A DNA stretch of 16,864 nt from a virus: IMG/VR virus record IMGVR_UViG_3300028920_000354; one strand, written 5' to 3'. The first letter of the stretch is position 1. The number at the start of each line of letters is the position of its first letter. A program made the translations under genes and the position numbers. The notes below the pieces were generated by a model. It made no database searches and was not told the origin of the DNA. It was given only the letters and a program-made list of their open reading frames with translations. Positions 10,508 to 11,439 of this stretch are shown here, piece by piece.

Positions 10508-10626
10508 GGCGTAGAGAAAGGGTTACTTCAACACTTTTAATGTTACCATAGCACCCTTCTCGCTTGTTCCCTCGGTTTTTGCTCTTTGACAAAAAAAGGT
10601 GTACGGTTAAAGATAACTTAAGTACA

Positions 10627-11388
10627 ATCATGGACAAGCCGGAGAGAAGTTTTGAAAGCATGAACAGGTTGCTCAACCTGCTGAAAGTGACGGTTCTCCT
10701 GAACTGGGCACTTTCGTGCTCCGTAACCGTATTCGGCATGTCTGGCAGCGTAGCCGCCAAAACGTCTCTTATGGTGGGTGTTGCGCTCACTGTGGCTGCC
10801 TACTTTCTTGCTGTCAGGATGAAAAACAGGAAGATAAGGTACTACAAGACAGCGCTTGAAAGGGTGAACAAATTCGCATACAAGGATCCCCTGACCGGGC
10901 TTCTTAACCGCCGTGGGACGATAGAGTCGCTTTCACGCATGCTCGCCAGGGCGCAAAGGCACGACGAATGCGTCATCGTCATGATGACCGACTTGAACAA
11001 GTTCAAGCTGATAAACGACAACCTTGGTCATGACGTGGGTGACGACCTTCTCAGGCAGATTGCCGGAAGGCTCATGAAGGCATTCAGAAAACAGGACACG
11101 ATAGGGCGCCTTGGGGGTGACGAGTTCATGCTTGTTTTCGGGGGGAAAAACTGCTGTGAAAAGGCGAAACTGATTTCCGAAAAGGTTATGGGCTTGTTCT
11201 CTAAGCCGTTTGACGGAATCGGCGACTATGAGGTGTCCATAAGCATAGGAATAAGCATTTACCCCGAGGACGGCATAGACCAGGTCGTCCTAATGAAAAA
11301 GGCCGACATAGCGATGTACATAGCCAAGGAAACCGGAACAGGTTATCAGATATACTGTACCCCAGATAGGGGTATAGCCAAGCGGTAA
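10627..11388 (+). CDS. membrane-anchored GGDEF-domain diguanylate cyclase
   Basis: Two hydrophobic helices (VTVLLNWALSCSVTVF and LMVGVALTVAAYFLAV), then YKDPLTGLLNRRG, GHDVGD and the active-site RLGGDEFMLVF. The track's 10564 start is a TTG codon; the first in-frame ATG is at 10627, and the true start is uncertain. The last 21 nt overlap the tRNA-Gln gene. Confidence 0.7.
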   Translation: MMDKPERSFESMNRLLNLLKVTVLLNWALSCSVTVFGMSGSVAAKTSLMVGVALTVAAYFLAVRMKNRKIRYYKTALERVNKFAYKDPLTGLLNRRGTIESLSRMLARAQRHDECVIVMMTDLNKFKLINDNLGHDVGDDLLRQIAGRLMKAFRKQDTIGRLGGDEFMLVFGGKNCCEKAKLISEKVMGLFSKPFDGIGDYEVSISIGISIYPEDGIDQVVLMKKADIAMYIAKETGTGYQIYCTPDRGIAKR

Positions 11389-11439
11389 GGCACGAGGTTT
11401 TGGTCCTCGCATGCCCAGGTTCGAATCCTGGTACCCCTG
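11368..11439 (+). tRNA. tRNA-Gln (anticodon UUG)
   Basis: Closely resembles bacterial tRNA-Gln: AGGGGTA-TA-GCCAAGCGGTAAGGC. Anticodon stem CGAGG/CCTCG, loop U-U-UUG-G-U, T-arm CCAGG-TTCGAAT-CCTGG, acceptor 3' TACCCCT, discriminator G. 72 nt. Confidence 0.8.

Follow-up and report, generated by a model that had tools for sequence, protein, structure and literature searches.

The 16,864-nucleotide stretch of viral DNA analysed here (IMG/VR record IMGVR_UViG_3300028920_000354; the whole stretch is called the window) carries on its plus strand, at 10630-11388, a gene for a GGDEF-domain protein that runs into a tRNA-Gln gene. Judged from its sequence and modelled structure, the protein is likely, though by no means certain, to be an active, product-inhibited, membrane-anchored diguanylate cyclase that raises cyclic di-GMP (c-di-GMP) in the infected cell. 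The domain, motifs, fold, topology signals, gene overlap, synteny and clade context were computed here; enzyme activity, dimerisation, promoter use, co-transcription and biological role are what we infer.

The GGDEF protein, its gene and its relatives

The catalytic domain (10876-11340, plus strand; amino acids 83-237) matched the Pfam family PF00990 (GGDEF) with an E-value of 2.1e-41 and 141.8 bits (cutoff 23.8) over profile positions 1-159 of 161, and TIGR00254 with 136.1 bits against a cutoff of 37.4. The GGDEF domains of PA0575 and MorA were retrieved by phmmer at E ~2e-31. An AlphaFold model, for which 52 homologues served as input, had a mean predicted local distance difference test score (pLDDT) of 90.2, and the GGDEF domain was modelled at 95-98. 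A Foldseek search with the model gave the Thermotoga maritima GGDEF structure 4urs_A as the best match (E = 3e-16, TM-score 0.93, root-mean-square deviation 1.5 Å), and many solved cyclases were among the matches.

The active-site motif (A-site), G162-G-D-E-F166, is encoded at 11113-11127 (GGG GGT GAC GAG TTC) and was invariant in 52 of 52 aligned homologues, as were D121, N129, D138 and K233. Correspondences with the cyclase PleD were set by fixed spacing from the motif (-43 for D121, -35 for N129 and -26 for D138). By this measure D121 is the metal ligand PleD D327, and N129 and D138 are the guanine ligands PleD N335 and D344; K233 is equivalent to the phosphate-binding PleD K442. In PleD, D327 binds metal, N335 and D344 bind guanine, and K442 and R446 bind phosphate (PMC7288161). 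The Hypr GGDEF enzymes, which are cyclic GMP-AMP (cGAMP) synthases, have Ser or Thr in place of the specificity Asp (GacA S348 = PleD D344; PMC6456294). That signature was absent from the window protein, and because D138 is the canonical Asp and not the Hypr Ser, GTP would be expected as substrate and c-di-GMP, not cGAMP, as product. Neither does the protein resemble a degenerate GGDEF receptor, as its A-site is intact and families of the FimX, LapD, CsrD and PelD type matched at only 24-47 bits or with E > 1e-5. An earlier reading made from the letters alone (the sequence-only reading) had named degeneration of the active site as a finding that would speak against a cyclase; on alignment the motif and the essential ligands proved invariant in all 52 homologues.

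The same reading had reported no obvious RxxD inhibitory site (I-site), and here it was mistaken. R153-K-Q-D156 is encoded at 11086-11097 (AGA AAA CAG GAC) and is followed by T-I-G-R-L and then G162, placing it exactly five residues before GGDEF. A distance of five residues upstream of GG(D/E)EF is the defining position of the I-site (PMC4933438). Among the aligned homologues the Arg was found in 51 of 52 and the Asp in 50 of 52, and RxxD is invariant in the four members of the phage clade described below.

The catalytic domain is preceded by a two-helix membrane hairpin (10666-10818), with a first transmembrane segment (TM1) at about amino acids 13-36 and a second (TM2) at about amino acids 45-63, and with both termini predicted to lie inside the cell. 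The two hydrophobic segments gave Kyte-Doolittle 19-residue peaks of 1.66 and 1.81, and a basic stretch, RMKNRKIRYYK, follows directly C-terminal to TM2. In the AlphaFold model a helix spans residues 5-32 and, after a six-residue loop, a continuous helix of residues 39-84, modelled as a single helix at pLDDT 84-95, comprises TM2 and a stalk that leads into the GGDEF domain. The stalk helix (10819-10881), continuous with TM2, is the presumed dimerisation element. Hydropathy, the modelled helices and the Pfam match thus bear out the earlier description of a two-TM anchor followed by a complete GGDEF domain. At the other end of the protein the model loses confidence from about residue 241 onwards, with pLDDT under 50 for 247-252.

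The plus-strand frame is open from 10564 to the TAA at 11386-11388, and a TTG start at 10564 would give 274 amino acids. The real gene is the shorter version that begins with the ATG at 10630 and encodes 252 amino acids, identical to the database protein P0001; gene calls on two public contigs used the same ATG and the same gene limits. On a codon-usage score trained on the window's other 21 genes, for which control windows from other genes average 13.2 bits, 10630-10818 scored +16.0 bits (15.8 bits over the best alternative frame) and 10819-11385 scored +73.5 bits, whereas 10564-10629 scored -1.1 bits, so that coding signal is absent there. In the relative at locus L005, the stretch homologous to this upstream region is broken by an in-frame TAA (129-131), and in the alignment the L005 homologue and the window cyclase begin at the same place. 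The upstream segment also holds a conserved promoter-like block, described below. That translation nevertheless begins at the TTG, for which the open frame itself speaks, is hardly credible on these grounds, and the 274-amino-acid start was rejected on the L005 stop codon and the missing coding signal. The sequence-only reading had rightly suspected a gene shorter than the TTG frame; its first ATG, given as 10627, lies at 10630, and the feature end it gave, 11439, is that of the tRNA, the open reading frame (ORF) stopping at 11388. The layout is the same in two near-identical assemblies, a 95-kb European Nucleotide Archive (ENA) contig (L001; five single-nucleotide differences from the window) and a Logan assembly (L002; three), none of which falls in the cyclase gene or the tRNA. 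The overlap is therefore not an assembly artefact.

Among 5.8 billion proteins searched, the only close homologues were P0002, P0003 and P0004 (49-56% identity, E ~1e-54), encoded at loci L005, L004 and L003, respectively; the next homologues, at 1e-38, were ordinary cellular GGDEF proteins. All three genes lie in tRNA islands with phage-like neighbours (ClpP, Lipase_3, Cpn10, HNH), whereas none of 60 control loci encoding cellular relatives had more than one nearby tRNA. The three proteins are soluble and about 203 amino acids long; lacking the membrane hairpin, they have instead an N-terminal helix, soluble and aligned with the stalk of the window protein. In the window protein the hairpin adds about 50 amino acids, inserted behind the N-terminus that all four share. 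Together with the window protein they form a clade of four that has in common the I-site, the A-site, Asn at position 123 and Thr or Ser at position 237. The window and L005 are syntenic from a conserved leader through the cyclase gene and tRNA-Gln up to where the next gene begins. Further clade members were not found: with the whole window as megablast query, none of 50,697 phage records matched, searching IMG/VR with the window protein yielded no close relative, and repeating this with the clade alignment added just four GGDEF loci, all distant (27-41% identity). Scans of JGI metagenomes returned only ordinary GGDEF proteins of at most 49% identity, essentially without nearby tRNAs, and scans of GTDB genomes only bacterial and archaeal genome records of at most 45% identity; neither added a member or offered a pointer to the host.

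A separate case was seen in a huge viral contig of 290 kb (L009; IMGVR_UViG_3300032167_003270). Its gene at 5749-6567 encodes a 272-amino-acid protein with two TM segments and a GGDEF domain, 27% identical to the window protein and without RxxD; in its island of six tRNAs the gene follows a tRNA-Gln(ctg) at a distance of 85 nt. This is probably an independent acquisition. The association of cyclases with tRNA islands is thus a recurring one in big phages.

The stretch shared with tRNA-Gln and the upstream region

A tRNA-Gln(UUG) gene was found by ARAGORN at 11368-11439/40 on the plus strand, and by Rfam with 64.5 bits against a gathering score of 29. Its acceptor stem is AGGGGUA/UACCCCU, the discriminator base is G and CCA is not encoded. 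The cyclase gene and the tRNA share 21 nt (11368-11388), which read AGG GGT ATA GCC AAG CGG TAA, or R-G-I-A-K-R-stop, in the cyclase frame; the same nucleotides form the 5' strand of the tRNA acceptor stem and the D-arm, and the TAA stop is part of the conserved GGUAA of the D-loop. ARAGORN, Rfam and three near-identical assemblies agree on this arrangement, as the sequence-only reading had described it. Five of the six shared codons fall in the range of residues 247-252 with pLDDT below 50, and all lie outside the catalytic domain.

Comparison with L005 suggests how the overlap arose. In L005 the cyclase stop codon is followed by 7 nt, a tRNA-Gln, 13 nt and a second tRNA-Gln, the latter orthologous to that of the window (71.8% identity, with a compensatory change in the acceptor stem). 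The homologous protein tails read ...TPDKGYV in L005, ending at a normal stop, and ...TPDRG in the window, where the frame enters the tRNA; the window codons that follow the homologous tail, AGG GGT, are the first six bases of tRNA-Gln. Relative to L005 the window is without about 100 nt, comprising the old stop codon, one tRNA-Gln and a spacer. After such a loss the frame would continue into the remaining tRNA until it met the D-loop TAA. All three relatives are without the overlap; in L003 and L004 the next tRNA is separated from the cyclase gene by a promoter, a small RNA and a terminator. Packing is tight elsewhere in the window as well: the coding sequence (CDS) at 8933 begins 1 nt after a suppressor tRNA, and the ORF at 10182-10424 stops 1 nt before tRNA-Asp. 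Because the overlap is not conserved, because packing is general and because only a tail outside the domain is touched, it is best read, on sequence comparison, as a derived by-product of genome compaction, an accident and not a designed switch.

In L003, a second overlap between a CDS and a tRNA was seen in this phage group. The gene for a 99-amino-acid cREC_REC protein (1088-1387) overlaps tRNA-Phe (1378-1451) by 10 nt, and its TAG stop lies within the tRNA. The units downstream of the relatives' cyclase genes also have a counterpart in the window. The plus-strand stretch 9546-9730 holds a strong sigma-70-like promoter (TTGACT-17-TATAAT with TG, 11 of 12 consensus positions), then about 150 nt and a terminator with a 16-bp stem just before tRNA-Lys. 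L003 4826-5010 and L004 1516-1712, directly downstream of the cyclase genes, are loosely homologous to it, each with a TATAAT box, 9-12 nt later the ATG of an ORF of 24-27 codons, and a large CCCCGG hairpin terminator. None of these three small-RNA or micro-ORF units matched Rfam.

Upstream of the cyclase gene, a conserved non-coding block with a candidate hairpin lies between tRNA-Asp and the gene (10505-10585, plus strand). The region 10505-10629 is 72.6% identical to L005 10-146, whereas the GGDEF coding DNA is only 63.7% identical. A hairpin was predicted in this leader by RNAalifold, with compensatory changes in 5 of 13 pairs; as a structure drawn from two sequences only it may be real and is kept as putative. 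The folding energy of the leader is unremarkable (minimum free energy z-score -0.49), the leader has no Rfam match, and an IMG/VR DNA-pattern scan for it returned 0 matches. The block was also considered as a degenerate tRNA-Lys, with CUUUUAA as its loop; this was rejected, as ARAGORN found nothing consistent even at relaxed thresholds and the alignment to both tRNA-Lys genes was poor.

The block is followed at 10586-10614 by a candidate promoter, TTGACA-17 nt-AAAGAT, with the counterpart TTGAAA-17-TAAGAT in L005. The TTGACA hexamer at 10586-10591 is as the sequence-only reading had it; its use as a promoter, which would imply a leader of about 9 nt without a Shine-Dalgarno site, is something we infer from conservation and motif only. 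A scan of the plus strand from 9637 to 12800 gave no promoter-like or terminator-like sites, and a promoter for tRNA-Gln inside the cyclase ORF was looked for and not found. With no such site in this interval, a single transcript probably covers the cyclase gene and tRNA-Gln. Host RNA polymerase would probably transcribe the cyclase from the conserved block, giving an RNA with a short leader that would run on through tRNA-Gln into the next gene.

On such a transcript, cleavage by RNase P at 11367/11368 would strip the stop codon from the cyclase mRNA. Since the stop codon would be lost on cleavage, any single RNA could yield the mature tRNA or be translated into a cyclase that ends at its proper stop, and not both. 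Cut cyclase messages would stall ribosomes, which a phage-encoded GGQ protein could in principle release. It can be asked whether this is an evolved regulatory device in which RNase P processing against translation of the tail tunes the cyclase dose, with the GGQ release-factor-like protein as a factor that might rescue ribosomes on the stop-less mRNA. The overlap is exact and reproducible across assemblies, co-transcription is likely given that no internal promoter or terminator was seen, removal of the stop codon by 5'-end cleavage of the tRNA follows directly from the sequence, and a stand-alone GGQ protein is indeed encoded at 14733-15092. A device of this kind is nonetheless distinctly unlikely. 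The overlap is unconserved, with a 7-nt gap in its place in L005 and whole transcription units in L003 and L004; the affected residues are not part of the domain and the model has most of them disordered; similar packing occurs without any link to a cyclase (the L003 tRNA-Phe, the CDS at 8933 and the ORF at 10182-10424); and nothing ties the GGQ protein to the cyclase. The competition between tRNA processing and translation that the sequence-only reading had proposed is, taken as a purposeful device, not upheld by the three relatives, the disordered tail and the general packing. As a product of compaction the overlap is still a clean natural case for following the fate of an mRNA whose stop codon sits inside an excised tRNA.

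The GGQ protein (14733-15092, plus strand; 119 amino acids) has a stand-alone release-factor domain (PF00472, E = 3.5e-16) with the motif GAGGQ. It is distantly PrfH/ArfB-like and a possible ribosome-rescue factor, and its gene, between those for an RNA ligase and a HAD_SAK_2 protein, is called on the Logan contig and uncalled on the ENA contig.

Proposed function and competing explanations

In the mechanism proposed here, the hairpin would anchor the cyclase in the host inner membrane with both termini in the cytoplasm. The helix continuous with TM2 would pair two subunits, and each GGDEF domain would bring one GTP, the two being condensed to c-di-GMP. The product would bind the RKQD I-site and limit output. 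Raised c-di-GMP would then, presumably, shift the host to a sessile state of low motility and high matrix production. From what is known of c-di-GMP in general, motility, surface structures and matrix production could be affected, as might superinfection or adsorption.

Several observations weigh against this reading. The main reason not to take activity for granted lies in two positions of the catalytic domain. Asn123 replaces the second Asp of DxDxFK, at the position of PleD D329, where 112 of 120 homologues have Asp. Thr237 stands where 47 of 52 homologues carry Lys or Arg, at the position of PleD R446, a ligand of the GTP phosphates. The two changes are coupled: seven of eight sequences with Asn123 are without the basic residue, among them the cellular REC-GGDEF proteins P0014, P0021 and P0042 (P0110 has Asn123 with Arg), whereas 97 of 112 sequences with Asp keep it. 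This coupling argues for compensation and not for decay, and the pair is read from the alignment as a tolerated variant, with which catalytic competence or rate could still differ. The remaining points concern expression and setting. The promoter-like block is below the threshold of the consensus scan and its -10 hexamer matches at three of six positions; the cyclase gene has no Shine-Dalgarno site, while most stand-alone genes of the window have AAGGAGG-like sites. In the approximately 36 kb of the phage contig examined there were no PilZ, EAL or HD-GYP genes and no c-di-GMP riboswitch, and no capsid or terminase gene was seen. Rfam at the gathering threshold found only tRNAs, and neither a c-di-GMP nor any other riboswitch, in the window and 40 kb of the contig, and at E <= 1 no c-di-GMP or other riboswitch in window positions 8400-13100 and the relatives.

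The coupled substitutions could instead mean that the clade is a remodelled GGDEF family, poor as a cyclase, that acts through the I-site as a sponge or sensor binding GTP or c-di-GMP, or that makes another nucleotide product. Asn123 and the change at residue 237 are fixed in all four members at positions that are about 90% conserved, residue 237 matches a PleD phosphate ligand, and the I-site is strictly conserved. This is unlikely, however, since the residues reported as essential (PleD D327, N335, D344 and GG[D/E]EF) are all present and invariant, cellular REC-GGDEF proteins whose sites are otherwise canonical also pair Asn with a non-basic residue, Asp138 predicts GTP specificity, and the degenerate receptors FimX, LapD and CsrD score far lower. 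A bolder version makes the four proteins a distinct viral GGDEF enzyme whose altered phosphate pocket changes kinetics or product and whose output is tied to tRNA maturation through RNase P and rescue by the GGQ protein (14733-15092). Were it true, the cyclase dose would follow the translation and tRNA-processing state during infection; on the sequence comparisons above we give it very little credence.

The remaining explanations leave the chemistry aside and question the role. As the tRNA islands of large phages gather accessory genes, and as its closest cellular counterparts, 40-50% identical, are GGDEF proteins of the ordinary kind, the gene might be a neutral passenger recently captured from a host, without a role in infection. 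We regard this as very unlikely, because the gene persists in the tRNA islands of four diverged lineages (45-56% identity), with no variation among them in catalytic or I-site residues, because the synteny of window and L005 extends to the non-coding leader, and because no cellular sequence exceeds 50% identity. Counter-defence, in which a competing nucleotide floods the cell against the cyclic-oligonucleotide-based antiphage signalling system (CBASS) or type III CRISPR, is highly improbable. It has no direct support, although the phage devotes many nearby genes to functions of a counter-defence-like kind (NAD salvage, RNA repair and tRNAs); there was no PADLOC or anti-defence family match, the expected product, c-di-GMP, serves housekeeping signalling, and a literature search turned up no link of phage GGDEF genes to such a role. 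PADLOC at E <= 0.001 gave no defence family for the cyclase and no match for three neighbouring proteins. The interference with cyclic-nucleotide immunity once suggested from the letters alone thus gains nothing from PADLOC, nor from a specificity residue that is Asp and not the Hypr Ser. An active, product-inhibited cyclase is the reading we prefer.

The tRNA island and known cyclases

The window holds seven co-oriented tRNAs interleaved with small genes, and the 95-kb contig on which it lies has 22 tRNAs within about 15.5 kb, so the placing of the cyclase in a tRNA island by the sequence-only reading stands. PHROG matches were found for seven of nine flanking proteins scanned, and neighbouring genes encode radical SAM, NUDIX/NrtR, RNA ligase, HAD_SAK_2 and PcfJ-like proteins. 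That a large phage carries the cyclase is well supported, though indirectly, by this context and by the huge-phage homologues of a neighbouring vault-like protein.

Other features of the region were noted. A plus-strand gene at 2610/2640-5426 encodes a protein of 928-938 amino acids with a Major Vault Protein shoulder domain (PF11978, E = 1.2e-26) and Vault_3 repeats. This vault-like protein, unusual for phages, has no PHROG match, and its only homologues in the phage collection (40-42% identity, >90% coverage) are from uncultured huge phages of 462-735 kb (LR756500, LR756501, LR756503). At 8861-8931 (plus strand) lies a tRNA with anticodon CTA, an amber suppressor labelled 'Pyl' by ARAGORN (Rfam 57 bits). 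TAG terminates three of 21 window genes; as it is still used as a stop in the window, any amber recoding would have to concern other regions or the late phase of infection. The stretch 8807-8860, directly before this tRNA, gave weak sub-threshold matches to YrlA and tmRNA fragments and may be a tRNA-like remnant. Two small plus-strand ORFs are uncalled on the public contigs: one of 42 amino acids (9961-10089) with an AAAGGAG site, between tRNA-Lys and tRNA-Asn, and one of 80 amino acids (10182-10424) before tRNA-Asp.

The contig also encodes a set of proteins for salvage and regeneration of nicotinamide adenine dinucleotide (NAD), with NADAR (378-860) and NUDIX/NrtR (5488-6204) within the window and NAD synthase, a nicotinamidase-like isochorismatase, NAPRTase and an NMNAT-like/MazG protein just upstream of it (L090 4967-9795). 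Genes for an RNA ligase (13803-14471, plus strand; PF09414, E = 2e-28) and the HAD_SAK_2 'Swiss army knife' RNA-repair protein (15089-15592, plus strand; E = 8e-28) flank the tRNA island, which is consistent with tRNA repair as counter-defence. Outside the window on the same 95-kb contig (L092 18095-19478), Lipase_3 and HD_4 (RelA/SpoT-type HD) follow a second dense tRNA block; Lipase_3 also adjoins the cyclase gene in L003, which hints at a common accessory gene set.

Among known systems, the canonical cyclases PleD, WspR and T. maritima TM1788 (PF00990/TIGR00254) share with the window protein their fold, A-site motif, RxxD spacing and ligands for metal and guanine. The window protein departs from them in carrying just a membrane hairpin and stalk, with neither a sensory nor a receiver domain, and in the coupled Asn123/Thr237 at the positions of PleD D329 and R446. 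YfiN/TpbB (DgcN) and AdrA likewise have an N-terminal TM anchor followed by a cytoplasmic GGDEF domain, but domain-level NCBIfam scores of 131.8 bits to DgcN and 79 bits to AdrA are both far under the equivalog cutoffs, and the window protein is an equivalog of neither. YfiN has a periplasmic sensor and a HAMP domain, whereas the window protein has an interhelix loop of about 6-10 residues and an I-site; YfiN is reported to lack I-sites (PMC10127611).

GGDEF genes borne by phages include those of Bacillus phage G (gp350), the YuA-like Pseudomonas phages and the Bordetella Vojvodinavirus LK3. By tblastn, 167 records of the phage collection matched, and Bacillus phage G gp350, one of these, was 33% identical. 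For Bordetella phage LK3 a GGDEF gene and hyper-biofilm lysogens have been reported, and the same gene is cited in YuA-like phages (PMC8471281). These other phage proteins are all below 40% identity to the window protein, their carriers are temperate siphoviruses or an unrelated jumbo phage, and none is described as membrane-anchored, in a tRNA island or overlapping a tRNA. In the literature, phage GGDEF annotations were found, but no biochemical characterisation and no clade of tRNA-island cyclases; the idea that phages manipulate c-di-GMP has so far rested mostly on annotations and one lysogen phenotype. If the window protein is active, large phages of virulent type would carry their own c-di-GMP synthase and could reset the host's motile/sessile switch and its surface and matrix programme during infection. 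The clade, compact (203-252 amino acids) and without a sensor domain, is therefore easy to test experimentally.

The nearest kin, P0002-P0004, share the Asn/Thr variants, the I-site and the tRNA islands and differ in being soluble and in having no tRNA overlap. The L009 protein has the same layout of two helices, linker and GGDEF domain but is only 27% identical and is without RxxD. Transcripts that carry both protein-coding genes and tRNAs are familiar from the E. coli tufB operon and the tRNA region of phage T4, where tRNAs are excised from polycistronic protein-coding RNAs. Compared with those cases, the tRNA of the window comes after the CDS and has 21 nt, the stop codon included, in common with it. 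Phage GGDEF genes are already known, and the window gene adds a member in a modestly unusual setting.

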